In this document: piece after piece, positions 27,657-63,030 of the stretch
Layout: each line of letters begins with the position of its first letter
Numbering within the stretch: position 1 is the stretch's first letter
NCBI RefSeq assembly: GCF_003704095.1
Contig: NW_020844270.1
Span: 248,001-312,000 of the forward strand
Direction: 5' to 3'
From: Pocillopora damicornis
Lineage: Eukaryota
Length of the DNA: 64,000 bases
Made by a program: the position numbers and the translations under genes
The notes under the pieces: generated by a model
Seen by the model: the letters and a program-made list of their open reading frames with translations, nothing else
What the model was told of the DNA's origin: nothing
The model's database searches: none

Positions 27657-27927
27657 TCCTTATTATCATATCCTTATTATTATATCCTTATTATCATATC
27701 CTTATTATCATATCCTTATTATCATATCCTTATTATCATATCCTTATTATCATATCCTTATTATCATATCCTTATTATCATATCCTTATTATCATATCCT
27801 TATTATCATATCCTTATTATCATATCCTTATTATCATGTCCTTATTATCATGTCCTTATTATCATGTCCTTATTATCATATCCTTATTATCATATCCTTA
27901 TCATCATATCCTTATTATCATATCCTT
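27657..27927. repeat. 14-bp minisatellite (TATTATCATATCCT) x ~19
   Basis: Directly visible tandem array with a few variant units (catgtcct); follows a ggcggatccagaccttgagcta repeat end at 27578. Confidence 0.95.
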
Positions 27928-39621: not shown

Positions 39622-42600
39622 CTAAATCGCAGTAACAGCGATTCCAGCTGACAAGAGGAACACCAGCAGGTTGATAATCAAGGATACCTCAGAGAATGGT
39701 GCCACGGATTTAGCGGTGGGTTTCGAAAGTACCACGAGGTCTTTGGTGTTGCATTTATCGGTATAGCAGCAACTGACGCCACAAGCATCTACTTTGGAGC
39801 CTGGGACTGCCTTGGTTAAGGACGTCACATTTTTACAGCCGTCTGTGGTTATTTTGGAGCACGCAGACTAAGAAAAAAAAATCAAGCTTTTCGTTAAAAG
39901 CGACTGGGTGATGATTTTTAGAAATGTTGAATAAAAAAACTAATATCTTAGAGAATAAAGGAAAATGGTATTCGCTCTCGGATCTGATGTTATCTGCTTT
40001 AACAAGAAGGCGGACTAAGATGGGAGCACGAATTCCGAAGGCCATTTGATTCTATTCCTCGCCGAAGACCCACATTCTCTCTTCGTTCCATGCTCATTGG
40101 AAAACATATCATATCTGTCTTTATTCGAGGACCCAGCCAAAAATTTACTATCTTTTCAATGTTATTAGGAAGAAAAAGTCACCTCTCAGGAGTGTCTGTT
40201 ATTTATTTTCAGTCTCTCGAGATACCGACAGGCCTTATGGAATCACACTCTTTTCACTGAGGCTTTCATTCTGGTTCTAAGTCCTTGACACAGGGTTTTC
40301 CATTTCGATATTTTGCGTCTTAACTGGGTGGGGACTTGGCGATGCGTGGTTTACATTGGTAGAGTTGAAAAAATTGCTTGAGGGGAAGTTTTCAATTGAA
40401 TATCGAATCCGGGATTGCATTGGTTTTGTTCAACCTTGCCTAGTAATTAGTCCAGAATTATCTTGCTATCCTCTCAACCAATCAGATGCAAACTAAAAAC
40501 TAATTTCTTCTTGGTCGCCTTCTTTGAATTCTCATTGGCTCACGGGGACATTTTCTCTGATTGGTTTTTGCGATTACTCTAGTTTTGTTATCACGACACT
40601 CAATCGAAAAGTGCTCTAAATCTATCTAACTTTGAAAGATGTTTTCTCATTATGGACATTCTTCCCATAATCAACACAATTCGTTGTCTTACACAGGGTA
40701 GTATAACGAACGGTTTGAAAGAATCAGCCACCCCTCCCCCTTCCCACCCTAACTATCCCGGTTAAGTGCACCCCCCTACCCCCGGACCACATAATGAAAA
40801 ATTGCCTTTTGAATCTCAGAACTTGTCTGATTAACAGAGAACGTAAATTGTAAGGGGAAACTCAACACAAGCCAGAAAATATCTAAAAACAATTTTGCTT
40901 AGGTGTTAGGTCTGCTCTCGTTCTTTTTAACTTTTTTCTTTCCGCTTTTTTTGGTAGTATTTTTGCCTTATTAAAATCTTTTTTATGGCTTGTATTAGAC
41001 ATTGACAGACTGGCCAACGTAAACAGATAAATGTTATCCGCCGACCAGGACAAAAAAAAAGTGAAAATAAGATTTCTGTTGATGTTGTTGGTTACTATTT
41101 TATAGCACGCTTACCTTCATGCTGCATGACATCATTCTCATGTCCATTTTTACCTTTGGAAGCTTCAGACTGATTTGCAATCCAGATGTTTGGCATGCGT
41201 CATACATTCCCGTGCAATTAGTTACGGTAATGTTGTTACCAGTGCACATGTTCTGTAACCCTGGGGTGCAATCGTAGCACAGTAGTCCCAGTGCTGTAGA
41301 CACAAAACGGAAAGGCGTTACCAATTTTTTAGGTAATATGATCCATTGGAATCTTTCTCATCATTGAGCAGGCGCTAATTTTAATTCTATTTCGCTTCAG
41401 TTTAAAATGTGTACCGAGAGTCGAAATTACCTATCCTGTTTAAAGGTTAATTTTTTTTTTAATTACACACTGAAAATTTAAGGGTGGCTGATTCGTCAAG
41501 CAGTTCTGACACTAACCATGAGAGGGAGACGAAAAAAAAAACACAACAAAACACAAAACAGGTTGCTACTTGCCTAACCTTCCCTAGTTATCCCTATAAT
41601 TTTTTTCCTTTTCATTGATTTTTCTTTTCTCGAATCTTTGAATCAAGCGATAAAGCAAAGAGAGAGTTACGCGCCACTGCCTGTTTTGAAATACAAGCCT
41701 TTTTTGTACTGAAACGCTTCCAAGCTCGAATGAATGATGCTAGTATATACCATTTGCATAGTATCAGAGCATTTACTGTACATACGTGTGGTTTGGACAA
41801 AGCCCAAGAGCTGACTGTTTCATATAAAAAAAATGTTGTGGAGGGGCAAGAGTTGTAGCTTTTTACTGACAAAGCCTGCCTAACATACTTGCACAAGTTT
41901 ACTCTTAAGTTACTTAGCACTGTCCTATCAAACGAACCAAACAGCAAGACACAGAAAGAAGCAAATACTGTCTTCTGAAAATAGTTGCGTACCTAACACC
42001 AATTATTCCTTTTGATGATCACCAAACCCCAAAACGTTCTTTGTTGACATGTTAATCCCTAGATGCATCAACTTCGGTTAAATCATCATTGTTATGTAAA
42101 TGCTTTTGTTCTGTTTGACACCTTGATCAGGTAAAAAGATTTAGGTGTGGTTTTCATTCGGTAAGCACTTGTAAGAGATACAAGATTTGCATGTCAAACG
42201 AACTAAACATTAAAATTTTACCTAGCACAAAAATTATAGAATGATTTCGTCTAAAGAGAATTTAATTTTAATGCCGAATTCACAGCACAGTTCCTATCTC
42301 TCAAAACAAGAAGAGATAAACGGGGACCATTATTCAGGGAAGTTTATAATCGGCTGGATGTATTATTTTGCTCATATCTTGAGATGGCTTCAAGGCGGTA
42401 GTTGACCATAAACTTAAAAAAGTACTGGACCACAAAATACTTAACGCTGAAACTGTTCCTTTCGTTTAAACAGGTTATAGTTTACATGTAATGATTATTA
42501 TTAATCGTTTTGTATCTCTTTTTTGTAAGCTCAATCATGAAAAATACATTGAACGTCAACAGAGTTAGATTCCCAAACCGACCATGTATGATAATTATAA

Positions 42601-43127
42601 CTGAAGGCGTAGTAATCTTAAGCGAAAATTTGTTATTGCCGCCAAGATTTCTCCCCTGCCCTTCTTTTTAACTTAATAAGCTTTTCATAAATCATGATTC
42701 TTAACATTAGTGACATTCGACAAATAATAGACACTTATAGAAAAAGGATATATTCGAGACATATCTATTCCCTGCTATTAACTTTAAATCGTGCGCAGCC
42801 ATACAAATCATGGTACTAAGCTCATTCCAGTGGTTTTTTTTTTTTTCAAGATTTCCGTAGCACTCATCATGATAGATGGGGTTAGGAACAGCCAAAACGA
42901 TTATCTCCAATAAGATGTAAAATGATAAGAAGATATTTTAAAGTTAGCAATTCTAAGAGCTGGTTCTGCTATCAGGTCGATTTAGCGTAGACGTAACTTA
43001 ACAGAAAACTACAGCAAAATAACTCAAATCAAAATGAATATTGATTAAAACAAAGCACATAAAAAAACTACCTACCACAAGGTAAAGAAGCTGTTACAGA
43101 CAGAACACAAATCAAGAAAAAATTCAT
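39622..43127 (-). CDS. GPI-anchored Ly6/uPAR (three-finger) protein B, 158 aa, 3 exons
   Basis: Exons 43127-43076 (MNFFLICVLSVTASLPC), 41293-41115 (ALGLLCYDC...SCSMK) and 39867-39622 (SACS...CCYTDKCN + hydrophobic tail) total 477 nt, in frame; 12 Cys; same intron phases as A. Confidence 0.9.
40388..40618. mobile_element. degenerate MITE (ttttcaattga...ctcaatcgaaaagtgctct)
   Basis: Imperfect terminal inverted repeats with internal ccaatcag/ctgattgg motifs. Confidence 0.45.
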
Positions 43128-44740: not shown

Positions 44741-47700
44741 TCAGTACATACAAAAAAGCACATAGAGTACGCTTGTAAGGGTGGTGGCAAATGATACAAC
44801 TTTGTTGTATGTTGTGGCACCACTAGAAGGCTTCGGTGGGGTTCCTGTGGCCATAGTTTTTACAGGAACACTGGTTACCGGGCCACTTGGTGAGGCGTTT
44901 ACACTTGGTGAGGTGTTTACACTTGGCGAGGCGTTTGCACTTGGCGAGGCGTTTACACTTGGCGAGGCGTTTACACTTGGCGAGGCGTCTACACTTGGAG
45001 AGGCGTTTACACTTAGCGAGGTGTTTACACTTGGCGAGGCATTTACACTTGGCCAAGCGTTTACACTTGGCGCGGCATTCACACTTGGCGAGGTGCTCTC
45101 TGCAAGCCCGTTGCACTTGTTCTGTTCACAACACGTGGCTTCGCATTTTTTAAAGGTCATTCCAGGTGGCAGTAGCGAGGCATTGCATGACTTTGCCTGG
45201 AAGTCTTGGCACATTGACTGTGTAAAGATTGAAATAAGAAAAAATAAATAAATGATAGTAATTGTCGAAAAGAGTTATTTCTTGAACATTTTTACGGAGT
45301 AAGCTGAGAGAGGTGGGAGAAATTGTCAAAGCTTTCGTGTCAGCATCCATCCTTTCTGAAAAAGTGAAAATGTTTTATTATAAAACAAACTTGTTTGTTT
45401 GCAACCTGTAAGATTTAATTATTATTGTACTCCCCATCCCACCCCAGCCTCTTATATCGAAACACTTATCCACACCTCTGAATTAGTTACTTGCAACGAG
45501 ATTTTGTGAGAGAACTTTGATTGTTTACAAGTGATTCACCTCTCTGCCGAGATTGGTGCACAAGAAATTATTTTAGAACAGTTTTAAACTGTGTCGAAAT
45601 TCTAAACTAAACTGGGACTGTTTTGAAATTGTTCCACGCCACCACAAGGCGTAGTTCCACGCGTCTTACATGAGAGTGGCTTACACTGCTGCTCTTTCAT
45701 GTGCCGTTGAGCGCGAGTTCACCAAGCTCAAGCGGTGAGAAGGACAGATAGATGGGGCATATAGAACCTTATAAGGTCTATACCATTAAGATTCTTCGGA
45801 TTAGCACGTTTTCACGAACCTGAATTACAGAAGGCTTTTATGGAATAGACTGAGAGCCAAACTTATCTATAAAAGAGAAGGGTAAAAGACACCCCCGGAC
45901 CACACCATATCCATGCCTAGGATCACCCCCTATTTATACCCAGCCCCAGGACCACCCCCCCTAACTATGCTCCCTGTACCTCTACACCATCCACTGAAAC
46001 AGTCGCTTCGCTTTTTTTTCCTTTTTTATCTACTCTCAAAGGCGTCGTGATAACGCCGAAATGACGAGACGAGATCTTAGTTTTATGGAATTTTTAAAAC
46101 TTTGACTTGAATAACGTTAATAAACTTAACCAGTTTAGCAGAAAAAGCCATATTTTAACTGCGCAGGATCAAAGCTTACCTTTGTTCCACAGCTAAACAT
46201 ATTCATAGTCTGGTTCATTTGCCCCATTTTCGCTACAGCTAATCTTTTGCTACACACGTCAGCCATGCCTGATGGTACGGTCGGATCCGCGTCACAATCG
46301 GTGACATTCAAATCAGCCAGTGTTGTGCATGACACTGTAGGTGGGTTTGGTGTGCAAGTGTAGCAGGTGATGGCCAGAACTACTGAAATTATAGAGTAAG
46401 TTCACAAATTGATCCCCAAAATTTATCTATGATTATTTTAACGTGAATTATCATTCAAGGATCCAGTACGACTTGAATGTGACATTATTCAACCTCGTTA
46501 TCGAGAGAGGAAAAGAGAGGACCCTGGAAACGAGGCTTTGTGTCTTTTTGTAAAGACCCTCCCACGAAAGATGTGAGAGCGTAGGGATTGAGATTCGCAC
46601 ATTTTCATATTTATTTCGATACTACGTTTTTTTCCAGTGATCATACTGTCAATACTTAGATTGTTAGCTCTCTCTATTTTATTACACGATTCGCTGTTAG
46701 AAGCACTTTCTCTATCAACAATTGTTTGGGGGGGACCAGCTAAGGAAAGCTACTTGTCAGCCGAACATGACATATTTGAATTGAAAGGTACATATTAACA
46801 TGGAATATCCGAGTGTTTTTACGGATGCGCTAGGGAAAAGCCTTCTATAATAACCAACAACAATGATACCACTAGAACGAGTCCTGTGCACTGAGCACGA
46901 TCATGGTTATTGTTACTTCACGACGAGAGTGAGTGGACAAATTTTGAATCAAATATTGCTTGAGGTACTGATGAATTGCACCAAACATTTTGATTTGAGC
47001 TGTTCTTTAACGACAAGCTGTGTAGCATGATTCATGATTTGTTGAGTGAGCCGACAATATTTTTCTGGATTGGTTTGCTCGGTGCTTTCTGTAGATGAAT
47101 GTCTGATTAAAATTATCTTTGGACGAATTTTTGTGGCTTCTAGGAAGCTTTGTCGTGTGACATCGTTTTTGAATGATATGCAATGTTAAGAGGTGTTTTC
47201 ATTGAACAACAATTTTTCTACGAAAGATGGTTGGTGGTTTGGTTGCAGTCAAATTCATGGTAAACATCGTGGTGTGTTACTCTTGGATCGGGTCTTTCGA
47301 TGTTAGAAGTTTGAACAGTTGCAAGTGTGTTGCAAGGTGGATTTTGTGTCATTATTGGCTGTTAAGGGAAATTGTTTGGCTGTTTGAGGGTAATTTTGAG
47401 AACACTGGACGAATGGAAATGTTTTCGATGCCTGGAGAAAGTGATCTTGTGGAGTCGTTTGGCTAAGGACGAATTCGGATACCATCGTTAGTATTTGTAT
47501 TTGATTCTGTTATCTGGAAGGAATGATTTGCGGAGGTATAAATTTAACTTAGTAGGATGTGATTTACTAACGTTGAAAATATATCAAGTCGAAAGAACAG
47601 TTTTGGTCTCGGTCCGCATTTTAGTCAACAAAATAAACACATACCGCTTAAAAAGATGATATTACGGACCAAGAGCAAAGCTGTCAATTTTNNNNNNNNN

Positions 47701-50183
47701 NNNNNNNNNNNNNNNNNNNNNNNNNNNNNNNNNNNNNNNNNNNNNNNNNNNNNNNNNNNNNNNNNNNNNNNNNNNNNNNNNNNNNNNNNNNNNNNNNNNN
47801 NNNNNNNNNNNNNNNNNNNNNNNNNNNNNNNTGTCGCATGCGACAAAGTCGCACCGTGTAAATAGGCCCTTAAATAGTCAATAGTGACATCTCATTTACA
47901 TCTGCATCTATTTTTATTAAGTTGGTAAAATCTGCACAGACATCACACCAACCAACTCGCACGCAAAGTGAGGAGACTGTATGAATGCTTGAAATTGTAT
48001 TAAGTCTGCATTTTGTACCCACTCTGGAGTCTGCAGTCTGCAGTCTACATTTTGTACTTAGTCTACATTTTATATCCGGTCTGCGCTCTGCATTTTGTAC
48101 TAATAGGTATCCGTGGCACCGATACAGTTTACTTTTGGTTATAGTTATTCGCACAACACACACAATCAACCACAAAATACCTGTGAGTGAGTTAATTCGA
48201 CGTTTTCGTTCTTTTCCGCGTTAATACTCTTTTCTTTTGTAAAAATATAGACATCACTTACAATGTTTCAATTAATTAATCCACCCAAAAAAATAACTCT
48301 TGCATGCATAGCATGCTTATGTTTTAACCTAGACACCGGTGATCCACACTTATGGTGAACTGACCGATTTATTCTCCAAGCTTGTGAAGTTTTCCGCAGG
48401 GATTCTCGTTTCGCTAATCACAGAAGTACAGATTCCTGTTTTGCAAATCATAAGCATATTCCCATTTCGCAAATTACAGATTTCTGTTTTGCAAATCATT
48501 AGCATATTTCCATTTCGCAACTGACAGAGTTTCACTTCGTTTCGCTTTGTTTCGCAAATTACAGTAAGCCGAAGTAAGTAGTGAAATAAGCATAGTTGGG
48601 TAAAAAAAACTGAGAAATTACTGCGTGAAACACTACTGGAAACCTTAGAAAATTATATGCAAAATAAATACATTCAAAGATTAGATAATTGAGGCGCTGT
48701 CTGGCATGACTTGAATCCATTGTTCGCACGAAATTCACCTTTAACAAATAAAGAGTAAATATCACTGCCTTTACAAGGTAGAGACGAACAATGAAAGGTC
48801 TGCATCAACTACAAAAATCAAATGCGATCTAACTCAGTCTACAGACGTAAGCTGTTCATAGAAAACATTTCCTTTGTGTCAGTGTCAGAAGAAATTTCCT
48901 AACCGTCGTCGTTCAGTTAACCATTTCTTTTATTCTCTCTTTTATTAAGCAGTTAATACAACGGGGACTAGCTCTAGTCTCTCAAGGAAAGTGTGGGTCA
49001 CCGCTTATAAGAGTGACGCCTACTGAGCTGCCAATCTCTAACCTTCGTCAGGCTTTTACACTTAACTAGCGAATCACACTAAGCTACGCAGAGCAGAGTT
49101 CGTATACTAAATAGGCACCTTCGCGATGTTTACGCTTTACAAATAACTTTCTACTTTAAATTTCTTAGTCTTACGATCAAGGTCGGGCGAAACAAAAAGG
49201 AGATTGGTAATATAAAAATTATAATAAACTTGCTAACAGAATTAAAATCATACTCGAAAAGATATGTTAAGATAAAATAGTCTTCGAAGACTGTTGCATA
49301 ACAGTAGAATAAACAGAAAATTCGGAGAAGAAAGGTCGTACCCAAGGTACCGCCCCTAAAAGAGCCACGTGCTAGCTGTATAAGTTATCTGATTAATAAT
49401 TCAGTGCGGAAGATGAAAAGTACTACATGTTTACACCTTAAGTCACCTCTAAAAAAAAGGAATTGTACGTGCTAAATTAAATTTTAAAAAATATTTTCCA
49501 GATAGCGAATACGACATGGATTTAGCCTAAAAACGAGAGTATTAAAGAGGTGAAAGTATAAGGGAGGGTTATTTCCACGAAATTCCNNNNNNNNNNNNNN
49601 NNNNNNNNNNNNNNNNNNNNNNNNNNNNNNNNNNNNNNNNNNNNNNNNNNNNNNNNNNNNNNNNNNNNNNNNNNNNNNNNNNNNNNCGCCAAAAGGAATA
49701 AGAAATGATCACTGGCTTTTTTCTGGCAATGTTTAATGAATGGCTTACGCTAATATATTACTTCCATTCATTTTCCAACACCAATATAGGAAACCCTTAC
49801 AATGTTTTCGGATTAGATATATTACTATTTTTATCGTTTAACATCAGTTTACACCCGTGAAGTCGGTGAGATTCACAGTTCACACCCATTATCAAAAAAC
49901 CAACGTTGAACAGCGCGACAGCGACAATCGACTCTTGATTATTTTGTTTACAGCCGCTCTTTTGGACAGTGGATTTTCTTTTTAGGGTCCATTGCTACTC
50001 TGAGTCTTAATAACACTCCTAATCGTTTTGTAAACGCTTACATACACTGCCATACTTAAAGCTTTACCATAATTTGCCAGATCGAACTATCTATCGCAAG
50101 AATTCCATGCGAATTCAAGCGACAATTCACTTACCGTTTGGTAAAGCGAACAATGGCAAAATGCACAGAAGATAGCCGTTCAT
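44741..50183 (-). CDS. GPI-anchored Ly6/uPAR protein C with a long Ser/Pro-rich repeat stalk, ~242 aa
   Basis: Leader 50183-50135 (MNGYLLCILPLFALPN; linked across two N-gaps, so the pairing is inferred), exon 46382-46180 (ITCYTC...SCGTK, NAGNAG acceptor) and exon 45217-44741 (SMC...CCEQNKCN-(PSVNAS)11-GPI signal); in frame. Confidence 0.85.
44885..45092 (-). repeat. 18-bp coding minisatellite (ccaagtgtaaacgcctcg) x ~11 encoding the PSVNAS stalk
   Basis: Directly visible; 4 units in paralog E (~57087-57169) and 1 unit in paralog D. Confidence 0.95.
48425..48570. repeat. repeat element with a ~48-bp internal duplication (gttttgcaaatcat...catttcgcaa)
   Basis: Two adjacent near-identical units followed by tttcgc sub-repeats. 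Confidence 0.6.
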
Positions 50184-50299
50184 CTTGAAGAGCATTAAGT
50201 GAAAGCACCTCCGTCGGGATTGAAGTCAACGACAACCGCTAATGCAAGTAACCATATGGACTCGACAGGCGGAATCGGGAATTATCTTATTTTTTTGCG

Positions 50300-50900
50300 G
50301 CTTTCTAACACCTGTTGTAATGGAAAAGTTGATAAAGATCTCACTCCCATCAACCAAAACATTGTCAAAAACACGATTAACGATCTTATTGCTAGACGAG
50401 AATTACCGGCCACTGCAAAAAACTCACCATCACCACTACTAGAACTTCGTGTATTTACTTTTTACCTAAAATCCACAAACCTAACAACCCAGGTCGACCC
50501 ATCGTCCCTGCCCGCAGTTGGCTCACCGAAATTGTTTCCAGCTATTTAGACAAAATTATGGCTCTTATCGTCAAAACTTTACCATCATATATTAAAGAAA
50601 GCCAACACGCACTTTAAATTTTTCACGACTTTAATTTCCTTGGCCAAGACAAAGTTATTTTCGCGATGGACACTACATCTCTTTATACTGTAATTCCCGA
50701 TGGCGAAGGTCTCCTGGCCTTCAAACATTTTGAAGTATTTATTTTTTTATCAACGTACTGTTAAGGACTCTAACTCTAAAACACCACTAAACTGTTAACG
50801 GTGGCCAATTTACATTATCATCTCAGTTGATAATACAAAATTGCCTTGTTACATGTATACTCCACTGATGCAGCACCACAGTTTCTTTAGAAACTTACCG
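50300..50900 (+). mobile_element. Penelope-like retroelement RT fragment (decayed) plus terminal tail
   Basis: Frameshifted DKDLTPINQNIVKNTINDLIARRELPATAKN...RTSCIYFLPKIHKPNNPGRPIV...SSYLDKIMALIVKTLPSYIKES...MDTTSLYTVIP matches the Penelope RT 'LPKIHK..P.RPIV' region; followed by the acggtggccaattt...gcagcaccacagtttctttagaaact tail. Confidence 0.8.
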
Positions 50901-51644
50901 CCTTTTTATTTATCCAGTAACATAATGCCTTGTTCAATGATCTGACCTGATCTCGAAATCGCGCTCATCGTAAAACCACCGCGTTTCCTTCATTGTATTT
51001 TCACATAATTGTCCCAATCGTCCCAGAATACCTTTTTTTGGATGCCTAAAACGACACAGAATATTATATGGAAACCAGCCATAAGTATATAACAATAACT
51101 TTTACGAGAAAAACGCCTCGTGAAGATCGAAATCGTTAAATTCAGTTCAAAATTTGTATCTGACTAATAGGAGGCAAAGTTTTTGATTAATCCTTATCTC
51201 AAGGATATGAGGAATTAAACAAAGGTCTTTTGACAAACGTACATAAATTTTGTTGTTCGGCTTGCGGTGAGAAGTCAAAGCTGTCACAAGATAATGCAAA
51301 GAGAAGATGTCACATGATTACTCTTAGCAGCGTACGAAAGGTTAACTTGAGTATCTATGCCCAAATCCGCTCAGTAAATAACGGGTAAATAATCTTCCCC
51401 CAGAAAGCACGCTGGTAATAATCAAAGTCGCACCAATTGAAGCACAAATTGAACCTCCCTTGTTCGTAGGGGGGATCATTATAATATTACAGAGCCTCAT
51501 AGAAGGATCAGGTTAATTTTACTGTGACGTTGCCAGAATCCTTCGACCCCTGCATTATAACCAGGCATTCTTAAAATCGCTAGCACCTTTTAGCACCTGG
51601 TAAACCTTGTTTTCAGCAACTCTTATAATGATCACTGCTCAAAG

Positions 51645-51866
51645 TCAGTACACAAAAAAAAGCACATAGAGGGCACTTGTAAAGGTGGTGGCGAATGATA
51701 CAACTTTTTTGTATGCTGGTAAGGCGTTTACGCTTGACGAGGTGCTGTCTGCAAGCCCATTGCACTTGTTCTGTTCACAGCACGTGGCCTCGCATTTTTC
51801 ATAGATTATTCCAGGTTGCAGTTGCGAGGCATTGCAAGACTTTGCCTGGAGGTCTTGGCACATTGA
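51645..51866 (-). CDS. Ly6/uPAR paralog D, last exon only (stalkless); upstream exons lost in the assembly gap
   Basis: SMCQDLQAKSCNASQLQPGIIYEKCEATCCEQNKCN-GLADSTSSSVNALPAYKK-GPI signal; 51590-52534 is a direct duplicate of 44690-45870. Confidence 0.75.
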   Translation of the reverse strand, partial: SMCQDLQAKSCNASQLQPGIIYEKCEATCCEQNKCNGLADSTSSSVNALPAYKKVVSFATTFTSALYVLFFVY

Positions 51867-52729
51867 CTGTGTAAAGATTGAAATAAGAAAAAATAAAATA
51901 TATGATAGCAATGGTCGAAAAGAGTTTTTTCTTGAACATTTTTATGGATTAAGCTGAGAGAAGGGTGGGGGGGAAAGAAATTGTCAAAGCTTTCGTGTCA
52001 CTACCCATCATTTCTGGAAAAGAGGAAACAGTTTATCATAAAACAAATTTCGTTTGTTTGCAACCTGTTAGATTAAAATTATTATTGTACTCCCCATCCC
52101 ACCCCTTGCTCTTACATTGAAACACTTATCCAAGCTTCTGAATTAGTTAATTGCAACGAGATTTGTGCGAGAACCTTGATTGTTTACGGGTGATTCATTT
52201 CTTTGCCTAGATTGATGCACAAGAAATTATTTCAGAATAGTTTCAAACTGTGTCGAAATTCTAAATTAAACTGGGACTGTTTTGAAATTGTTCCACACCA
52301 TCACAGAGGCGTAGTTCCACGTGTCTTACATGAGAGTGGCCTACACCGCTCCTCTTTCATGTGTAGCATTGAGCTCGAGTTCATCTGAGATCACGCGGTG
52401 AGAAGGACAGGTAAATGGGGTACCTAGAACCTCATAAGGTCTATGCCATGAAGATTCTTCGGATTAGCACGCTTTCGCGAACCTGAATTACAGAACTGAG
52501 ATTTTTATGAAATAGACTGAAAGCCCAACCTATCNNNNNNNNNNNNNNNNNNNNNNNNNNNNNNNNNNNNNNNNNNNNNNNNNNNNNNNNNNNNNNNNNN
52601 NNNNNNNNNNNNNNNNNNNNNNNNNNNNNNNNNNGCGGAGTATCCTCTTCTTTTTCGAGCGCGAAAATGTTCAGCGTACAGCCAAATCGTAATAAAATTG
52701 CCTTCTTCACGAATATAAAGCTCTATCAG

Positions 52730-53800
52730 CTCAGGATCACTGTATACGTATGCAGACAATACTACGGTCTATTGTATAGGGGAAATTGCAGACACAGATA
52801 TTGCACAGTTAAATGCAGCGCTGCAAGAGTTACATGCATGGTGACTTAACAATCTTTCAACACTTCATCCATGGAATTGGAATATTATAAATTTTAAATT
52901 TTATCGCTTTACTATATAGTAACTTAAACATATGTTTTAATTATACATGTATTTAAATTTGGTATTTCATATCTTGTTTTATATCTAAAACTTTTAATTT
53001 AACTTTGTAGTTATTTTATTTTATGCTCGACCCCACAAGCTACTAGCTTTAACTACTAATAAAAGTTTGTCGTTTCGTATCGTATCATCCAGGCAAGAGT
53101 GAGGTTATGTTACTCAGTAAAGGAACCCCAATGGGACCGATAGCTCTTGAGCTATTAGGAAACTCAATTCTTACGTGGGTTACGAAAGCACGCTTGCTGG
53201 GCTTAACAGTTGACCAGAACTGAACTTGCTAAAACGGTACAGATTTCTCCCAGGAGACATATTGAAAGAATTTTATTTTAAAGTAATTTTGACTTCTGAA
53301 AATTGGGTTTAGTTCTGTGAGGATCTTGTAGTAATTCTGATATATTCGGTTCAACAGAAAGACTACACTGCAGGGCAGTAAGAATTATATTTAATCTACT
53401 TAAGGATAAATCATATGACATCAACCGACGTGCTTGAATACGACCAGTGGCCTACACTTTCTTTGTACTATAAATCAGACATCTTCAAGCTTTTTTACAA
53501 AGGCTATAGTGCCACTATCCCCGACTCACTGTCTGAAAACATCCTTAAATGTCGCTCAAATGGTTACTCTCTGAGGGGACGCGACCTTTTGACAGTATTC
53601 AGGTTCCAAACAAGATACGTAAAAGACTCGCTCAAATATCGCGGCGCTGTGTTATGGAACACTGTTTGCTACTATGAACAAGAAGTTGGACACTCGAGTC
53701 TCAATAATCTGAAAAAAATTAACGCCTACTCACCGGAGACTACTTTAAGGAATTCAAATTTGACATACTTTCCGCTTCTACTGCTCGCTTATACATACCG
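52730..53800 (+). mobile_element. decayed CR1/L2-type LINE RT and 3' end, interrupted by a younger insertion
   Basis: GSLYTYADNTTVY (YADD-like)...LHP, resuming after 53091 as GKSEVMLL...ARLLGLTVD...LERLHCRA-like...YSLRG...SLKYRGAVLWN; contains stops and frameshifts; partial duplicate at 54377-54830. Confidence 0.75.
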
Positions 53801-55802
53801 ATTATTTTATTACTTAGAAGTCATAACATCTATCATTTTCTATTTTCAAATTCAAGTTATATTCACATAACGTGAAATTTTCCTTTTTTTTTCACACGAC
53901 TCCACAAGCTTATAGCTTAAAATATTATCGTGCACAAATAAAGGTCATCATAAAAGTTATCAAAACACAAGGACCAAACTGCATCATCATCGTTGTTGTT
54001 GGTTATTATCGAAGGCTTTTCCCTAGCGCATCCATAAAAACATTGATATGCCATATTAAAATGCATCTTTCAAATTCAAATATGCCAAGTTTGGCTGACA
54101 AGTAGCCTGTCTTAGCTGATCTTCCCAAACAATTGTTGATAGAGAAAGAGCTTCCAGCAGCGAATCGTCTGACAATAAGAAGAAAGCTAACAATCTAAGT
54201 ATTGACAGTATGATCACCGGAAAAAAAATAAAAATGAAGATGAAAATGTGCGAATCTCAATCCCTACGCTCTCACANNNNNNNNNNNNNNNNNNNNNNNN
54301 NNNNNNNNNNNNNNNNNNNNNNNNNNNNNNNNNNNNNNNNNNNNNNNNNNNNNNNNNNNNNNNNNNNNNNNNNNNNCTTGTAGTAATTCTGATATATTCG
54401 GTTCAATAGAAAGACTTCACTGCAGGGCAGCAAGAATTGTATTTAATCTGTCTAAAGACTTATCATATGACATCATCTGACGTGTTTAGATATGACCGGT
54501 GGCCTACACTTTTTTTGTATTATAAATTAGACATCTTCAGGCTTTTCTACAAAGGCTATAGTGCCACTGTCCCGGACTCACTGTCTGAAAACATCCTTCA
54601 ATGTCGCTAAAATGGTTACTCTGGTTACTAGTATTCAGGTTCCAAACAAGATACGTAAAAGACTCGCTCAAATATCGCGGTTCTGTGTTATGGAACACTG
54701 TTTGCTACCATAAACAAGAACTTGGACGCTCAAGTCTCAATAATCTGAAAAAAACGCCTACTCGCCAGAGACTACTTTAAGGAATTCTAATTTGACATAC
54801 TTTCCGCATCTACTGCTCGCCTTATACATGCCGATTTTTTTTATTTAGAAGTCATAATATATATCATTTTCTATTTTCAAATTCAAGTTATATTTACACA
54901 ACGTGTAATTTTCCTCTTTTTGTCACACGACCCCTCAAGCATGTGGCTTAATGTTAATGTTATCGAAGCACAAGGACCAAAATGCATCATTCCGATTCCA
55001 CTCTCCACAGAAAACCGACAAAAAAGGTCATTACGTTCTAGTGATATCGTTGTCGTTGGCTATTATCGAAGGCTTTTCCTCAGCGCATCCGTAAAAGCAT
55101 TGGTATGCCATGTTAATATGCATCTTTCAAATTCAAATATGCCAAGTTTGGCTGACAAGTAGCTTGTCTTGGCTGATCTTCCCAAACAATTGTTGAAAGA
55201 GAAAGTGCCATTAGCAGCGAATCGTCTAATAAGATAGAGAGAGCTAAAAATCTAAGTATCAACGGTTTGATTACCGGAAAAAATAAAAATAAAGATAAAA
55301 ATGTGCGAATCTTAATCCTTACGCTCTCACATCTTTCGCGAGAACGTAATTTACAAAAACAAATGGTGCGATTTTACACCGTTACTGATTCCAGTATAAG
55401 TAAGGAATAGCTTCCCAAATATAGTTTGTACTGTCGTCAATCCAAAATAATCTGAAAAACTACGAAAGCGTCGAATTCTCACTAATGGAGCATTAGTTTT
55501 ACTCACGAATTTAATTAACAGACGAAGTCTGTTGTCATCATCTTTGTGGGTTTATTTTGCCGAAAATGAATTATGATATGAGAGAAAAGAAAAATTCTGA
55601 TTGGACGCTATTACCACCTGTGCCACAAAGCCTCATTTCCAGGGTCCTCTCTTTTCCTCCCTCGATAACGAGGTTGAATTATGTTTAAACCAAGTCGTAC
55701 TGGATCATTGAATGATAAGTCACGATAAAATAATCATAGATAACTTTTGGGGATCAATTTGTCAAATAATTCCGTAATAATCTTCATTTCCCTTCTTTTC
55801 AG

Positions 55803-57312
55803 TAGTTCTGGCCATTACCTGCTACACTTGCATACCAAACCCACCGACTGTGGCATGCACAACACTGGGTGATTTGAATGTCACCGATTGTGACGCGGAT
55901 CCGAATATACCATCTGGTATGGCTGACGTGTGTTTCAAAGTGTTAACTGTGGTGAAAAGGGGACAAATGGGACAAATGACTATGAATATGTTTAGCTGTG
56001 GAATGAAGGTAAGCTTTGATCCTGCGCAGTTAAAATTTGGCTGTTTTCGCTAAACTGGTTAAGTTAACTAACATTATATAAGATAAAGTTTTTAAAATTC
56101 GATAAAACTAAGATTTCGTCTCGTCATTTCGGCGTTATCACAACGCCTTTGAGAGTAGATAAAAAAGGAAGAAAAGCGAAGTGACTGTTTCAGTGGATGG
56201 AGTGGAGGTACAGGGAGCATAGCTAGGGGGGTGGCCCGGGGGTTTAGTATAAATAGGGGGTGGTCCTGTGGTGGCGCTTGGATATGGTGTGGTCCGGGGG
56301 TAATGTGACCCTTGTCTATTTCAGATAGGTTTGGCTTTCGGTCTATTCCATAAAAATCTTCTGTAGTTCAGGTTCGCGAGAACGTGCTTACCCGAAGAAT
56401 CTTTATAGCAAAGACCCTATAAGGTTCTAGGTACCCCATTTGCCTGTCCTTCTTACCGCGTGAGCTCAGATGAACTCGAGCTCAATGATACACATGAAAG
56501 AGCAGCAGTGTAAGCCACTTTCATGTAAGATGCGCAGAACTACGCCTTTGTGATGGTGTGGAACAATTTCAAAACAGTCGTAGCTTAATTAAGAATTTCG
56601 ACACGGTTTGAAACTGTTCTGAAATAATTTATTGTGCATCAATCTGGGCAAAGAGATGAATCACTTGTAAACAATCAAGGTTCTCGCACAAATCTCGTTG
56701 CCATTAAACAATTGAGAAGCGCGGATAAGTGTTTCAATGTAAGAGCAAGGGGTGGGATGGGGAGCACAATAATAATTTTAATCTAACAGGTTGCGAACAA
56801 ACAAGTTTGTTTTATGATAAAATATTTTTACGATGATACGAAAGCTTTGACTGTTTCTTCCCCCTCTCTTAGCTGACTCCTTAAAAATGTTCATAAAAAA
56901 TCACTCTTTTCGACTCTTGTTATCATTTATTTTCTTTTTTCTTATTTCAATCTTTACACAGTCAATGTGCCAAGACCTCCAGGCAAAGTCTTGCAATGCC
57001 TCACAACTGCAACCTGGAATGACCTTTAAAAAATGCGAAGCCACGTGCTGTGAGCAGAGCAAATGCAACGGGCTTGCAAACAGCACCTCGCCAAGTGTAA
57101 ACGCCTCGCCAAGTGTAAACGCCTTGCCAAGTGTCAACGCCTCGCCAAGTGTAAACGCCTCACCAAGTGGCCCGGCAACTAGTATTCCTGTAAAAACTAC
57201 GGCCACAGGAACCCCACCAAAACCTACCAGTGGTGCCACAGCATACAACAAAGTTGTATTATTTGCCACCATCTTTAGAAGCGTACTCTATGTGCTTTTT
57301 TTCGTGTACTGA
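55803..57312 (+). CDS. Ly6/uPAR paralog E, exons 2-3 (4-unit stalk); leader exon not assembled upstream
   Basis: Exons 55803-56008 (VLAITCYTCIPNPPTVAC...SCGMK) and 56962-57312 (SMC...CCEQSKCN-(PSVNAS)4-GPI signal); inverted duplicate of gene C exons and introns. Confidence 0.85.
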
Positions 57313-57912
57313 CTTTGAGCAGTGATCATTGTTAGAGTGCTAAAAACAAGGCTAACCAGGTGCTAGAATGTGTTTGTTTAGGAAGGTCACTTTCAGTGTA
57401 TAAGTATATAATATAAGTTTTTGTTTTTGTATGTTTAACATTATAGTCAATAGTTCTTAAAGTATTTTAGCATAATTTAAACACGATTCTTAGGAAGACC
57501 ATTTAAAATGATATGATTTCGTGTATAAATAAAGATTGATGATGATGATAATGATGTGTGTTCATTTTCAATACATAGATAATCAATAATCAAAATTTGG
57601 GACTTGAGACGTAATGTTTTCCTTATACAGATTTTCGGTTTGATGTGGCACCCACAAATACTTTTACAGTGTTCATTATAGCTGCTATTCCTTTGGCCTG
57701 ATAGGATTTCGTCAATCTATCTTGATCATCAGATTATTTTCTATAAAAGTAAAAGTTTGTGAGAATTAATTTACATCAGTTACCCTGTTTGGCACGGCCA
57801 TGATAAAAAGCAAACATGAACAGTGACTTAGAATTTTCCAGTCGGCGACCCAAACGTTTTTATCAAGACAAAATACATTGTGACGACTTATAATTATCGT
57901 ACTTGCAGATTT

Positions 57913-58400
57913 CTAATGTACAATTTTGGAGTTAGGTTCCTTAACAATACGTTGATAAAAAAAAAAGTATTTGAGGGCCGGGAGACCTTCGCCATTGGGA
58001 ATGACAGTATGGAGAGATGTAATATTCATCACAGAAAGAAATCTGTTTAGGCCAAGGAAATTAAAGTCGTGAAAAATTTCAAGTGCGTTTCGGCTTTCTT
58101 TAATGTATGATGGTAAAGTTTTGACGATAACAGCCATAATTTTGTCTAAATAACTGGAAATAATTTCGGTGAGACAACTGCAGGTAGGGACCATGGGTCG
58201 AGCTGGGTTGTTAGGTTTGTGGATTTTATGTAACAAGTAAATACACGAAGTTCTAGGAGTGGTAATGGTAAGATTTTTTGCAGTGGCCGGCAATTCTTGT
58301 TTAGCGATAAGATCAGTAATCGTGTTTGTAACAATATTTTGGTTGAGGGAGAGAGATCTTTGTCAACTTTTCCACGAAAACAGGTGTCAGAAAATAGTCG
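57913..58400 (-). mobile_element. Penelope-like RT fragment, paralogous to 50300-50780
   Basis: PATAKNLTITTPRTSCIYLLHKIHKPNNPARPMV...SSYLDKIMAVIVKTLPSYIKES; same position relative to a Ly6 leader exon as the 50.3-kb copy. Confidence 0.8.
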
Positions 58401-58600
58401 CAAAGCTTCTTTTTGGTAAAGGTCGGCCCGTCAAAAAATGACTGCCACCAACACCCCTCCCTTCCCCCCAGAATTGGACAATTTCCGATTAACACTTCCG
58501 CCTGTCGAGTCTACAAGGTTAGTTTGCATTAGCGGCTGCCTTCGAACGTAGTTTCAAACTTCAATCCCGACGGAGGTGCTTTCACTTGACGCTCTTCAAG

Positions 58601-58649
58601 ATGAACGGCTATCTTCTGTGCATTTTGCCATTGTTCGCTCTACCAAACG
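58601..58649 (+). CDS. Ly6/uPAR C-subfamily leader (signal peptide) exon, extra copy 1
   Basis: MNGYLLCILPLFALPN + G|gttagt; near-identical to 50183-50135. Confidence 0.7.
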
Positions 58650-59039
58650 GTTAGTGAATTGCCGTTTGAATTTGCATTGAATTCTTGCGATAGTTAGTTA
58701 GTCTAGCAAGTTATGGAAGTACTTAAATTATGACCCAGTTATGGCAATTAATCAACGAAGGAATTTGCTTGGACATTTCTGAGTGTTGTTAAGACTCGCA
58801 ATAGCAATTGAGCCAAAACTGGTTAACTATACTCGAAAGAAAAATATCCTAAAAAGCGATTGAACACAAACTAATCAAAGGTTAATTGTCGCCGTTTGGT
58901 TTAATAATTATTGAGTGTGAATCTAATCTACTGAAATTTATTTACAAACGGCTTGCGTCTGTAAAATAAAAAGTAACATCGCATTGTTTCATAATCTGTG
59001 GCTTTTTCTCTTCTACTATTCAGGCGATCACACTCGTCA

Positions 59040-59262
59040 GAGAAATGCGTCCAAGAGGAAGATAATCGGTGTGCGCGATCGAGCATGGTTGTCGATAAGC
59101 TCCGTTTATAACGATTGCCTACATGGCTTTGATAGTTTAATAGTAGACCTGTGTTAGTTGGTTTTCACATAAAACTTGGTTTCCACTTGGGTGCACAGTT
59201 AAGTAGCTGAGTGCCAAGGAAAGGAAGCATGCCGTTCTTTTTTACCTCCATGGTGAATTTGG
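59040..59262 (-). mobile_element. second Penelope-like fragment (RT thumb region)
   Basis: KFTMEVKKNGMLPFLGTQLLNCAP...KPTNTGLLL...TMLDRAHRL, with frameshifts. Confidence 0.7.
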
Positions 59263-59569
59263 CCTTTGGCGTCATATAGACCCCAAAACGTCGGTTCCTA
59301 TTGCTATTTTTTACGTGTTTATGTGTAACTAAATTATTGAAAAGGAAATGGCAGATATTTTCTAGGTTTAAGGCTCCGAAATTTGTCCAATCCAAAGTCT
59401 CTGGGAATATTTGGTCATGTTGTGTAGGTCTTTCGTTAGTTCCGCTAACATCGGAAAATTTCCGAGTAACACTTCGGCCTTTCGGGTCAACATCATCAGT
59501 TTATATACATTGGGCGTGTTGTCGAAGTTCAATTCCCGACAGCGGTGCTTTCACTTGACGCTCTTCAAG

Positions 59570-59618
59570 ATGAACGGCTATCTTATGTGCATTTTGCCAT
59601 TGTTCGCTTTTCCAAACA
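59570..59618 (+). CDS. Ly6/uPAR C-subfamily leader exon, extra copy 2
   Basis: MNGYLMCILPLFAFPN + A|gtcagt; flanks 59530-59910 are the reverse complement of ~49850-50225. Confidence 0.65.
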
Positions 59619-60198
59619 GTCAGTGAATTGTCGCTTGAATTCGCATTGAATTCTTGCGATAGATATTTTATTCTGACAAATTATGGTAAAGTTTAAAGTA
59701 GGGCAACGTAGGAAAGGGTTTGCTAAACAATTGGGAATGTTGTTTAGACTAGAACTCAGAATAGCTGACTCAAGGTAATCCATAGTCCAAAAAAAGGGAT
59801 TGTAAACAAAGTAATCAAAAGTCGATTTTCGCTGTCGCGCTGTTCAACGTTGGCTTTTTAATAACGAGTGTGAACTTTGAATCGCGCCGACTTCACGGGT
59901 GTAAATTGACACAAAGAAAATANNNNNNNNNNNNNNNNNNNNNNNNNNNNNNNNNNNNNNNNNNNNNNNNNNNNNNNNNNNNNNNNNNNNNNNNNNNNNN
60001 NNNNNNNNNNNNNNNNNNNNNNAATTTTGGCCGACTTCTGGGAGTAAACATTTGTTTTCCTTAAATTTCACGCTTGAGAAGTCATTACCAAATGACGATC
60101 ATATGACACAGGAAAAAAAAAATTCCTTTCCTCGTTTCCAGTCTCTCATTGTCTATCTGAAATCTCGACTAGTAACTTTGACCCTGTCAAACTCAGTC

Positions 60199-63030
60199 AT
60201 GGCGGCCTGGTGGTATGCCTTCGTCGTCCTACTTTTTAGTGGTATTTCTGTCGTTGTTAGCGGAAAATGCCCTTGTGAAGATCCGTCATTATGCGACACA
60301 ATCTCAAGACCGCCAGGAAAAGAATTCCTAATGTTTTCCACTAAGCCGAACGATTGGAGAAAATACGATTGGGGAAAAGTGACGACGATTGCACTGTTTC
60401 GACCATGGGATGATGAACTGATGTGCGAAGCTCACAAGAGAGTAAGTGTTGGAGCGATTTATTTAATTGATTGCTCATGGAGTTTTTTAAACCTCCAAAA
60501 AAAATAGGATAAGAAACTCAAGGAAGCGTTTTATTAGGACAAAGACTTGTCGGGTCATGTTCCGAGGGATATGACAGGCTGTGACTTCATTTGCATGGAA
60601 TTTTCCGAGAATCTAAACATCACCAAGCGTTAGAATGGTTCTCTAACCGTAACAAGGTTGAACACGTTGAGAAAACTTGGATTTCTTCTATTCGATCAAC
60701 TTATTTCCTTTACTTAATTTGATTAATTTCATTTTTCAATTTCATTGTACACATATACATACATATACTTTTGGTGAGGCAGGTCGAGCTGTTTTCCTTG
60801 CCTTTTTATTTGATTTATTGATATAGCAACAATGCATGTGTCCAGCCTAATGGTGTGGTAAACTCGCTAAGCTTTAGTGTGGAATAGCAACTTTTTTTCC
60901 TTGTTTGCTTGTTCACAAGTATTTCGTTGCATGAAGCATTTTAAGTGAAAAATGTGCTAACAGAAATTCCTATACAAGAGCCAAAAACCTGAAGTTGTGT
61001 TTCTAACCAACTGTTTTTGATCCAGAAATCAAATGCACTTGTTGAATTTTGATTGGGTTACCTTGGATATGTGTTTTTTGAAACATTTTAGTTCCCAATA
61101 TTTTTTGTAGAGAATTTATGCCCTCAAGGGTTGAGATACAATGCAGTGCAATAAGATATGGTGGCACAAGCTATTTGGTCAGGAATGTTAACAAGTCATA
61201 TACCTTATGTATTACTGTGGCATTAATTTCCAGGGAGTACGAGTTGTTTTGGCAGCAAATTTTCCGACAGAAAAACTTAGCAGCAAGGAAATAAGGACAA
61301 AGTGGGTGAAGAACCTAACTACTGAAGCCTTGGCCCGGCATGCCGATGGAGTCAATATTGATATTGAATCACCAATACCCAAGAGGTCCAGGGAAGTCAC
61401 ACTGCTCACAAAGCTGGTTAATGAAACTGCAACAGCCTTCCGTGCTGCAGTCAAAAATGCACAGGTAATCACTTGAAATGAATCATCACTATGAATGAAA
61501 CACTTTGGGCCAAGTTTTTTGGGAGCATAATTAGGGCTAGTCCATAGTAATATACTGCTCAATCCTTTGAATCCCATGAATGACCAACATAGAATTTCTC
61601 TGTACAGTATCAGTACAATCTCAAGCAGACAAGTTTTTTGTTACAAGAAGCAAGTTCTCAAGTAGTTGTGGTGACAAAAGAGTCATTGGCAGTCAAATCA
61701 TATAAATCCATCACTTTTATAATAAAGATATTGACAATAATACATAAGATTTTTCACTGTTACCCCATTGTCGGTAAATAAACATAAGAAGTTAGAACTA
61801 CCTTGAAACTGTATATCAGTTTCTAATTGTTCATTTCAGATATCTTTTGATGTAGCATGGTCTCCTGACTGTGTTGATGGACGATGTTATGATGCAGAAG
61901 CTCTTTCTCAAGTGGTGGATTTTCTTGTTGTAATGGCATATGATGAGCAGAGTCAGATCAAAACTGGAGATTGCATAGCAAAGGCAAACTCACCCTTGAA
62001 ACAAACAGAAGCTGGTAAATGCTTAATTTTTACAAATTAAATGTCTTGCCTATTTAATTGGAGAAAATTTTTGTAGCATGCTGTAGAATGAGGAGAATTG
62101 AGATTTAAGTTCTTGTATACATTGTAAATCACTCCCTCAAACCTTTGCAATTGGTTGAATAGTTTTTATTCTGTACATATTTTTTTTGTCTACAGCAACC
62201 GAATTCACCCTTCCTCAATCCCCTTCCATTTGAAAGGGTATATGGAAGGGTGAATGCCCACAATCCAACTTGGAAAATTTTGGCCAAATTTTTTTCAAGC
62301 CATTGGTAAAAAAGTTTGTCATTCAAGTATATTTCACTGGTGATGTGCCAGATATGTAGAGCAAAGAATTTTATGCTAACCATTTAATGCCTGGATGTTT
62401 AAAGCTCAGTTTTTTCAATCTGACATCATCACCTTGGTTGAAGGTAACTTAAAAAGAGTGCAAGCTTTCATTTTGATATGAACAGACCTTTACTAATCAA
62501 AATAAATTTCAAATTTATTTCTTATTGTGCAAAGGAACTGTACTGATATCAGGACCTGTTTTTTCTTGCCTTACTTTCCAGCACTGGAAGAATATTTAAG
62601 TCTTGGAATCAGACGAGAGAAACTGGTGCTTGGCTTACCATGGTATGGGTATGACTACCCATGTTTGGAACTGGTTGACAACAGGATCTGCAAGATTAAG
62701 CATGTTCCATTCCGAGGAGTAAACTGCAGTGATGCTGCTGGCAGACAGATTGAGTATGCAGAAATTATGGACCTGTCTGTCAGCAGAGCATCCTCTGGTC
62801 CCCAGAAGGATGAAGATTCTGAGTCATACTTTTTCAACTATGAGGACAGTGTGGGTGGAAAACACCAGGTTTGGTTTGATAATCCTGACAGTTTGAAAAT
62901 AAAGTATGATTTTGCTGCTAAGGAAAATTTGACTGGCATTGCCATTTGGAATGCAGACTTGTTGGACTACAGTGACATCCCAAGAGCTATGTTGGAAACC
63001 AAGAAAATGTGGGATGCTTTGCATCATTGA
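60199..63030 (+). CDS. CTBS: di-N-acetylchitobiase (lysosomal GH18), 365 aa, 4 exons
   Basis: Exons 60199-60441, 61234-61464, 61840-62014 and 62582-63030 total 1098 nt, in frame. Signal peptide, CPCEDPSLC, YDWGKVTT, GH18 catalytic DGVNIDIE, ISFDVAWSP, VMAYDEQSQI, KLVLGLPWYGYDYPC, HQVWFDNPDSL, WNADLLDYS. Confidence 0.96.

Follow-up and report, generated by a model that had tools for sequence, protein, structure and literature searches.

A three-finger protein family of Pocillopora coral with a tandem-repeat stalk of variable length

The window, by which we mean the whole 64,000-nucleotide stretch of the Pocillopora damicornis assembly that was analyzed (contig NW_020844270.1, positions 248,001 to 312,000), carries genes for GPI-type Ly6/uPAR (LU, three-finger) proteins, herein C, D, and E. 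Their features and those of the intervening sequence, in window coordinates, are as follows.

44741..45217, minus strand: exon 3 of C, with the end of the LU domain (CCxxxxCN), stalk, GPI signal, and stop
44816..44824, minus strand: candidate GPI omega site S-G-A of C, a rule-based assignment (PMC10491789); conserved in E and Stylophora
44894..45091, minus strand: minisatellite of C, 11 × 18 bp, consensus SPSVNA; 9 to 12 units in related records
46180..46382, minus strand: exon 2 of C, first two-thirds of the LU domain, tandem CAG/TAG acceptor; 67 of 67 residues equal the RefSeq protein
50135..50195, minus strand: exon 1 of C, encoding the signal peptide, with a phase-1 GT donor; all 20 residues agree with P. 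verrucosa XP_066020578
51645..51866, minus strand: exon 3 of D, with the end of the LU domain, one unit, an in-frame deletion, and a hydrophobic tail
51723..51740, minus strand: single unit of D, SSSVNA
52535..52634, no strand: N gap at the expected position of D exon 2, with ∼1 kb apparently lost, judged against E
53325..54276, plus strand: duplicate of the distal part of intron 1, sharing 83% identity with 54377-55331
55803..56008, plus strand: exon 2 of E
56962..57312, plus strand: exon 3 of E, with the end of the LU domain, stalk, GPI signal, and stop
57088..57159, plus strand: minisatellite of E, 4 × 18 bp; E-type records have 3 or 4
58601..58649, plus strand: orphan copy 1a of the signal-peptide exon, lying downstream of E
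59570..59618, plus strand: orphan copy 1b of the signal-peptide exon; the RefSeq D model begins with the same 16 residues

D is represented in the window by its last exon only, exons 1 and 2 being missing at the N gap, and no exon 1 was found upstream of E in the window. The flanks of the gap terminate at positions corresponding to E 56324 and E 55331. Judged from the sequence, the intron-1 duplicate at 53325..54276 is probably the intron 1 of D in the wrong orientation; orphan copy 1b is probably the exon 1 of D, because of its 16-residue agreement with the RefSeq D model. The assembly piece carrying E is probably mis-oriented, a true inverted duplication of E being less likely, and a probable scaffolding error conceals gene D. 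The RefSeq model of D is complete (158 residues).

All nine heads compared have 12 Cys and the CCxxxxCN signature, in agreement with the LU definition of PMC7053344 (the signature plus conserved Cys for three to six disulfides). By inspection, the hydrophobic exon 1 of C reads as an N-terminal signal peptide. AlphaFold2 models the head confidently, and pLDDT falls below 50 across most of residues 128 through 222, a prediction of disorder in the stalk. When the predicted model was searched with VIA-align, the top 39 rows were LU proteins, three-finger toxins, or TGF-beta receptor ectodomains; the best match was Prod1 (Z 8.7, rmsd 1.9, 71 aligned), and CD59 was also matched (Z 7.8, rmsd 2.8, 74 aligned), both being GPI-type LU proteins. 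Foldseek agrees with a three-finger fold (best E only 1.8e-3). The ESM Atlas yielded nothing beyond leads, all below 0.9 and chiefly from three-finger-fold families. By these models, the head is a three-finger fold. Pfam returned no family for the five exons of C, D, and E that were scanned and none for four of six full-length relatives (best, UPAR_LY6 at E 0.4); of 25 alignment members, two were reached by Pfam LU models, at E ∼0.05, and none above cut-off; and searches of PDB sequences with two profiles gave no match at E 10. Literature searches, largely of non-subscription sources, returned nothing on the family under six gene or protein identifiers, and it is absent among the matches listed for coral/Ly6 and VNTR literature.

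Tandem Repeats Finder detects two 18-bp arrays, one with 11.7 copies at 44884-45093 and one with 4.7 copies at 57086-57169; counted as whole units in codon register, C has 11, E has 4, and D has 1, which bears out the in-frame counts of the initial annotation. Over 198 nt the period-18 identity is 0.86, whereas none of 20 shuffles exceeded 0.40, placing the array well beyond chance. Unit counts were taken from 18 antisense-frame matches, including nine C-type and two E-type, and describe variation across records rather than among colonies of one verified species: C-type records have 9 (two records), 10 (four), 11 (two), or 12 (one) units and the two E-type records 3 or 4. The C-type last exons surfaced under the opposite frame only; a sense-frame search, likewise with 8,000 candidates scored, yielded none of them. 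C in the window has 11 units, vs. 10 in a RefSeq protein that is identical elsewhere, and the 11-unit type was found independently (P0108, 11 contigs). Repeat number thus varies in frame at one locus, between head and membrane, as had been anticipated when the array was proposed to be a VNTR.

As the unit is 18 bp long, frame is kept automatically, and its preservation is hence no evidence of tuning. Substitutions among units include S to W, S to L, P to L, and N to D, which we count as loose constraint; 8 of 17 unit changes lie at CpG positions (p 0.035). Unit changes also tend to be synonymous (pN/pS 0.39, p 0.055); hence some constraint acts on the repeat. All nine C-type representatives stay within 9 to 12 units, which may point to maintenance of long stalks; long arrays were also favored by the search itself. 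Across the family, stalks span 12 to 97 residues. Stalk repeats arose independently in other coral Ly6 proteins (2 vs. 3 copies in Montipora, and an Oculina protein), a recurrence that could reflect selection for reach.

D does not belong to this length series as a setting reached by slippage, the role first proposed for it: its exon 3 carries a deletion of at least 75 bp, in frame, that takes the rest of the stalk together with the S-G-A site and leaves D 25 residues shorter than a one-unit relative. The described loss of the Thr/Pro segment with frame kept is therefore correct. The junction recurs in 24 database records, including RefSeq XP_058941360, which together with the window give 16 distinct last exons; D is a real, recurrent deletion. 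Further in-frame linker deletions occur in P0011, P0014/P0124, and P0123. The statement that D keeps its GPI tail holds for the hydrophobic tail but not for the SSGA lost with the stalk; in C, E, and Stylophora, this SSGA is the best candidate for the omega site. The omega rule calls for a small omega residue, a non-Pro omega+1, a small omega+2, a spacer, and 15 to 20 hydrophobic residues (PMC10491789). In a pattern scan, C and E show this arrangement at the candidate site S-G-A, and D, lacking S-G-A, offers S-S-S right at the start of its unit as an alternative candidate, 8 residues past the last Cys and 31 residues from the C-terminal end.

Nor are the heads the same receptor, as the initial annotation had it. 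Of 102 LU-domain columns, 17 separate C from E, and the RefSeq D model, used here as the D head is unreadable within the window, shows 24 differences from C and 21 from E; identity among the three is only 76 to 83%. Two pairs point to constraint (C vs. E, dN/dS 0.33, Fisher p 0.002, 105 codons; D vs. E exon-3 head, dN/dS 0.22, p 0.027, 38 codons), and the pairwise C vs. E test gives no sign of positive selection in the heads. The long hairpin, a region picked after the differences had been viewed, has more than its share of variable columns (12 of 26 vs. 18 of 76, p 0.045). All four combinations of head marker (IIY or MTY) and stalk (deleted or intact) are seen, the class of IIY plus stalk in one record, and the E tail accompanies two stalk types; these mosaic haplotypes come from short contigs, among which assembly chimeras are possible. 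Scanning intron 2 and exon 3 of C, D, and E by eye for the odd one out revealed no clear conversion tract.

The Stylophora orthologue has no repeat units, and in a Stylophora cluster of 17, all 15 members listed have 0 units and a 36-residue linker. Our preferred explanation, which we hold to be somewhat better than even, is that C, D, and E are young tandem copies of a single-domain, putatively GPI-anchored surface binder that are diverging from one another, each with a tolerant, disordered Ser/Pro spacer that slips and recombines. A single pocilloporid ancestral gene would have given rise to the family, with Stylophora retaining the fixed 36-residue Ser/Thr/Pro linker; the 18-bp unit would have been born within this linker in the Pocillopora line. 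Slippage would then shift unit number per locus (9 to 12 in C, 3 to 4 in E), unequal exchange or conversion among neighbors would mix heads, stalks, and tails, and separate deletions would remove the linker wholly, in D and others. The product would be a membrane-tethered binder, its folded head holding an extracellular partner, with a disordered, probably O-glycosylated spacer that is loosely constrained in sequence and length. Reach would differ chiefly among paralogues (∼8, 55, and 97 residues), whose heads differ too, and the variation of one to three units inside a locus is most likely tolerated, not tuned.

An adaptive alternative, in which repeat number is selected, sets the height of the head over the glycocalyx or a cell-cell gap (∼2 to 24 nm), and lets alleles and paralogues meet different partners, appears unlikely to us. 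It gains from the reality of the VNTR, from the range of stalks in a single family, from the stalk repeats of other corals, and from two precedents, namely the one to four repeats in the mucin-like region of GPIb-alpha (PMC6322330) and a prawn lectin family whose function increased with repeat number (PMC7536079). Length is confounded with head, because the heads differ by 17 to 24%. In a rod model with 0.25 nm per residue, one unit adds merely ∼1.5 nm and the longest stalk reaches at most ∼24 nm. The mucus is 0.5 to 0.8 mm thick (PMC3123308), four orders of magnitude more, so the stalk cannot clear it and the projection of the head above the mucus, suggested initially, does not stand. Adaptive tuning is a possibility, and the repeat-free outgroup Stylophora and the natural length series make the stalk-length question directly testable. 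We give still less credence to a combinatorial surface-recognition locus with recombined three-finger heads, 0- to 12-unit stalks, and repeat number selected for nanometer-scale reach at an interface that may be a cell junction or a symbiont or microbe contact. If true, it would provide a heritable, PCR-typable polymorphism in coral self/non-self recognition or stress outcome.

Comparably improbable is that glycan load matters over height, units adding Ser/Thr acceptors and alleles varying in usable N-sequons, with the stalk serving to shield, to guard against proteases, or to be shed as a mucin-like piece. Ser and Thr make up 34 to 35% of the stalk, and the Ser/Thr/Pro (STP) region of C4.4A is described as heavily O-glycosylated (PMC7053344). 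As initially noted, a Pro comes after most stalk sequons, 7 of the 8 of C and 3 of the 4 of E, which disfavors N-glycosylation (PMC8342417); 3 of 5 sequons in a five-unit RefSeq paralogue are without a following Pro, vs. 1 of 8 in C. Against this reading, the stalk is gone from D and other members, which nonetheless recur widely. Least probable of all, in our estimate, is that C alone is functional, D and/or E being copies in decay or artefacts of the assembly. Their incompleteness in the window amid N gaps, the loss of the ancestral omega site from D, the lack of a spliced D-type transcript contig among the records listed, and frame-disrupted relatives (P0012, P0050, P0117, and P0125) would fit, but the D junction is shared across records, RefSeq has a full D model, the dN/dS values are low, and the 11-unit C type has been recovered independently, the longest exact repeat inside its array (33 bp) being short vs. 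typical read lengths.

At a minimum, the family offers a coding VNTR that is specific to the lineage and easy to type, in a group of coral surface proteins that lacks annotation. Links have been reported between coral Ly6 genes, which may not be those of the window, and both pre-bleaching stress (PMC2728513) and resistance to Vibrio (PMC8059587). One of them, Pdcyst-rich of P. damicornis, is an LU-family protein of 147 residues with a predicted signal peptide and GPI signal, is calicoblastic, and is down-regulated before bleaching (PMC2728513); its identity with a window gene was rejected, three short antibody-peptide motifs being absent in all six window frames.

With Prod1, CD59, LYPD6B, and GPIHBP1 the coral proteins share the predicted fold, CCxxxxCN, a signal peptide, and a C-terminal GPI-type signal; they differ in having 12 Cys, a longer domain with a helix, and, in C and E, the repeat stalk. 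D resembles ordinary stalkless LU proteins, its candidate anchor lying 8 residues beyond the last Cys. C4.4A/LYPD3 likewise combines an LU head, a mucin-type Ser/Thr/Pro region, and a GPI anchor but has two LU domains, and the passages of PMC7053344 on it describe neither a tandem repeat nor a VNTR. In yeast Als/Flo proteins (PMC6308950), a signal, a binding head, variable tandem repeats, a Ser/Thr stalk, and GPI recur in a paralogous family. The yeast proteins are much longer, Als repeats fold as domains, and adhesion is demonstrated for the yeast proteins. Platelet GPIb-alpha has an unrelated head, is transmembrane, and is encoded by a single gene, in contrast to the coral multi-gene array with its 6-residue units and whole-stalk deletions. 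A binding head on a mucin-like stalk with one to four allelic copies of 13 residues is nevertheless common ground (PMC6322330). The prawn Rlec genes are an invertebrate multigene family with 1 to 9 coding units, for which slip mispairing is invoked; their head is a C-type lectin, and an effect of repeat number on function is reported (PMC7536079). The variable-repeat stalk is thus an already known design, and what is new here is the animal group in which it is found.

C, D and E are predicted to encode single-domain Ly6/uPAR (LU) proteins with a signal peptide, a three-finger head and a stalk that precedes a GPI-type tail. Their last exons lie where the initial annotation placed them, and an AG acceptor common to all three sits directly 5' of each:

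44741-45217, minus strand, last exon of C
51645-51866, minus strand, last exon of D
56962-57312, plus strand, last exon of E

An AlphaFold2 model (25 sequences) is confident for the head and falls below a pLDDT of 50 across most of residues 128-222. Structural alignment of the predicted head places Prod1 (Z 8.7, rmsd 1.9, 71 aligned), LYPD6B, CD59 and GPIHBP1 among its best matches; Foldseek returns the same families, weakly. All nine heads compared carry 12 Cys and the CCxxxxCN signature of the LU definition (PMC7053344). Fold, Cys count and signature together point to the LU class; Pfam gave no match above cut-off for the family, and membership appears to rest on predicted fold and signature rather than a Pfam score. 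Among named proteins C is closest to an uncharacterised one of Pocillopora verrucosa (XP_066020578, LOC131769637), which matches it fully over exons 1 and 2 and has one repeat unit fewer in exon 3. Further members occur in P. meandrina and Stylophora, and more distant ones in Oculina, Montipora and Acropora. Logan contigs of 1-1.7 kb encode spliced full-length family proteins (a 1-unit form, and the Stylophora type), which shows that the family is transcribed; none of those found is of C, D or E type.

Tandem Repeats Finder detects 18-bp arrays in C and E. Period-18 identity is 0.86 over 198 nt (maximum in 20 shuffles, 0.40). Counted in codon register, units of consensus SPSVNA number 11 in C, 1 in D and 4 in E, as first described. 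Pro directly follows most stalk sequons, as also described (7/8 in C, 3/4 in E); Pro at this position is disfavoured for N-glycosylation, yet its exclusion is looser than at the middle position (PMC8342417). The C array has two more open frames (44766-45251, plus; 44823-45125, minus), since the 18-bp unit contains no stops in them; they are probably a by-product, and gene callers often choose the opposite strand at this array.

The surmise that the array is a VNTR gained support from ENA entries called in the opposite frame, which gave 18 matches. Nine are C-type by their flanks, with 9 (two records), 10 (four), 11 (two) and 12 (one) units after subtraction of one lead-in block from each pattern count; the E type accounts for two more, one with 4 units and one with 3. 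These counts cover cluster representatives and pool variation within and between species, the two being inseparable because the records carry no species assignment. The cleanest allelic comparison is that of the window with the RefSeq protein, 11 versus 10 units and otherwise identical. A further paralogue class has 3, 4, 5, 7 and 8 units, and 1-unit classes are also present; the count for record P0002 was taken from its 79-residue stalk, the pattern having missed one unit. A Stylophora cluster (17 members, 3 named) has no unit and a 36-residue linker in all 15 members listed, so within this sample the repeat belongs to the Pocillopora line. Ly6 proteins of two Montipora species have an 8-residue stalk unit in 2 versus 3 copies, and an Oculina Ly6 protein has a unit of roughly 10 residues (P0102, P0144 and P0101 for the three proteins together); both are unrelated to the Pocillopora unit.

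D does hold one unit, but as the product of a deletion of at least 75 bp rather than the slippage setting proposed for it. At the junction, which shows 2 bp of microhomology, the first two codons of a second unit run straight into the GPI spacer. This junction recurs in 24 database records and 16 distinct last exons including the window's; one cluster alone draws on 40 contigs among the 15 listed of its 23 members. The deleted stretch includes S-G-A, which is the best candidate omega site in C, E and Stylophora. D retains a candidate site, S-S-S, 8 residues past the last Cys, which fits a published omega pattern (PMC10491789), and so may be an ordinary stalkless Ly6. Further in-frame linker deletions occur in P0011, P0014 (with ENA support in P0124) and P0123; P0012, P0050, P0117 and P0125 are frame-disrupted, perhaps as pseudogenes or through homopolymer errors.

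Contrary to the claim of one shared head, the heads vary: C and E differ at 17/102 columns, and the D model in RefSeq departs from C at 24/102 and from E at 21/102. The D last exon of the window differs from RefSeq at 4/73 residues. Head dN/dS is 0.33 for C versus E (105 codons, Fisher p 0.002), 0.22 for D versus E (38 codons, p 0.027) and 0.43 for C versus D (p 0.24), values that speak for proteins which are maintained and diverge. Among four paralogues, the variable columns tend to fall in the long hairpin, a region picked post hoc (12/26 versus 18/76, p 0.045).

Among the three genes only C is complete in the window. Five N gaps cross the region, which holds three copies of exon 1, two of exon 2 and three of exon 3; D is without exons 1 and 2, and E without an upstream exon 1. 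The exon-1 copies are:

50135-50195, minus strand, exon-1 copy
starts at 58601 and 59570, plus strand, exon-1 copies

The 16 residues encoded by exon 1 at 59570 are the start of the RefSeq D model, XP_058941360. Gap-flanking pieces stop at matches to E 55331 and E 56324, omitting ~1 kb that holds exon 2 in E. Most simply, 52635-54276 and 54377-59922 would be mis-oriented pieces, and the genes would in fact run head-to-tail as E, D and C, with the stalkless paralogues B and A after them; a real inversion is less likely.

A and B are complete three-exon short-linker Ly6 genes (35017-37862 and 39622-43127, on the minus strand like C and D). In Oculina, relatives of the A/B type and of the C type carry locus tags next to one another on a single 64-Mb contig, which suggests an old Ly6 cluster. 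The signal-peptide exon is tandemly duplicated (58473-58730 and 59450-59700, plus, 79% identical), and at a related locus the isoforms in RefSeq draw on two alternative first exons of this kind; a tandem CAG/TAG acceptor at exon 2 yields isoforms differing by one residue. Decayed fragments at 50199-50781, 57916-58393 and 53382-53870, duplicated together with gene units, resemble LINE-type reverse-transcriptase sequence; the two of the three scanned gave no Pfam match. Exons matching VWA, PAN-like and pentraxin domains (21254-27339, plus) possibly form one extracellular matrix or lectin gene, and a 14-bp minisatellite (27657-27927, 19.4 copies, 97% matches) lies close to the pentraxin-domain exon (26902-27339). 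An uninterrupted 315-residue ORF (31409-32356, plus) has a LicD-family match (E 4e-10), and exons at 60200-63030 (plus) look similar to di-N-acetylchitobiase. Imperfect palindromes of 158 bp (34051-34208) and 123 bp (38616-38738) are possibly MITE-like elements.

One-unit gains and losses at differing array positions suggest that slippage changes unit number. Mosaic records suggest exchange between paralogues: IIY heads occur with deleted (8) and intact (1) stalks, MTY heads likewise (16 and 27), and the E tail is found with two stalk types; chimeric assembly could contribute to some of these. Units tolerate non-conservative changes, with 8/17 unit changes on CpG positions and synonymous changes slightly in excess (pN/pS 0.39, p 0.055). 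A glycosylated rod extends 0.25 nm per residue; with this scaling and a disordered-chain formula, stalks would span ~7-24 nm in C, 5-14 nm in E and ~2 nm in D. Coral surface mucus is 0.5-0.8 mm thick (PMC3123308), so, contrary to the proposal, heads on even the C stalk would not project above it, and reach can be relevant only at the glycocalyx or cell-contact scale.

Slippage, exchange, tolerant units and nanometre-scale reach together favour, as the probable account, a tethered binder carried on a spacer that tolerates change, with reach fixed mostly per paralogue. An adaptive dial, in which repeat number is selected for reach, would draw on the same unit-number variation and faces the differing heads and the short span; we consider it unlikely. 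Glycan load as what matters in the stalk seems more doubtful still. Decay or artefact, with frame-disrupted records on one side and the head dN/dS values and recurrent D junction on the other, is the most improbable. The VNTR is better supported than when first noted, and the account of one head at tuned heights is weaker.

Published coral Ly6 genes include Pdcyst-rich (PMC2728513), which is absent from the window and was ruled out as one of its genes, and a Ly6-like transcript linked to Vibrio resistance (PMC8059587). The C/D/E family was not found among the literature matches listed; the coding VNTR in the Pocillopora Ly6 array is real and without earlier annotation. A head on a variable repeat stalk with a membrane anchor is a known design, shared by GPIb-alpha (PMC6322330) and the yeast Als and Flo adhesins (PMC6308950). 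Exonic VNTRs are treated in general in PMC12776774, and in one invertebrate multigene repeat family an effect has been measured (PMC7536079). C4.4A is known to combine an LU head, a mucin-type region and GPI (PMC7053344), and by analogy the C and E stalks may work like the VNTR stalks of GPIb-alpha or Als-type adhesins.
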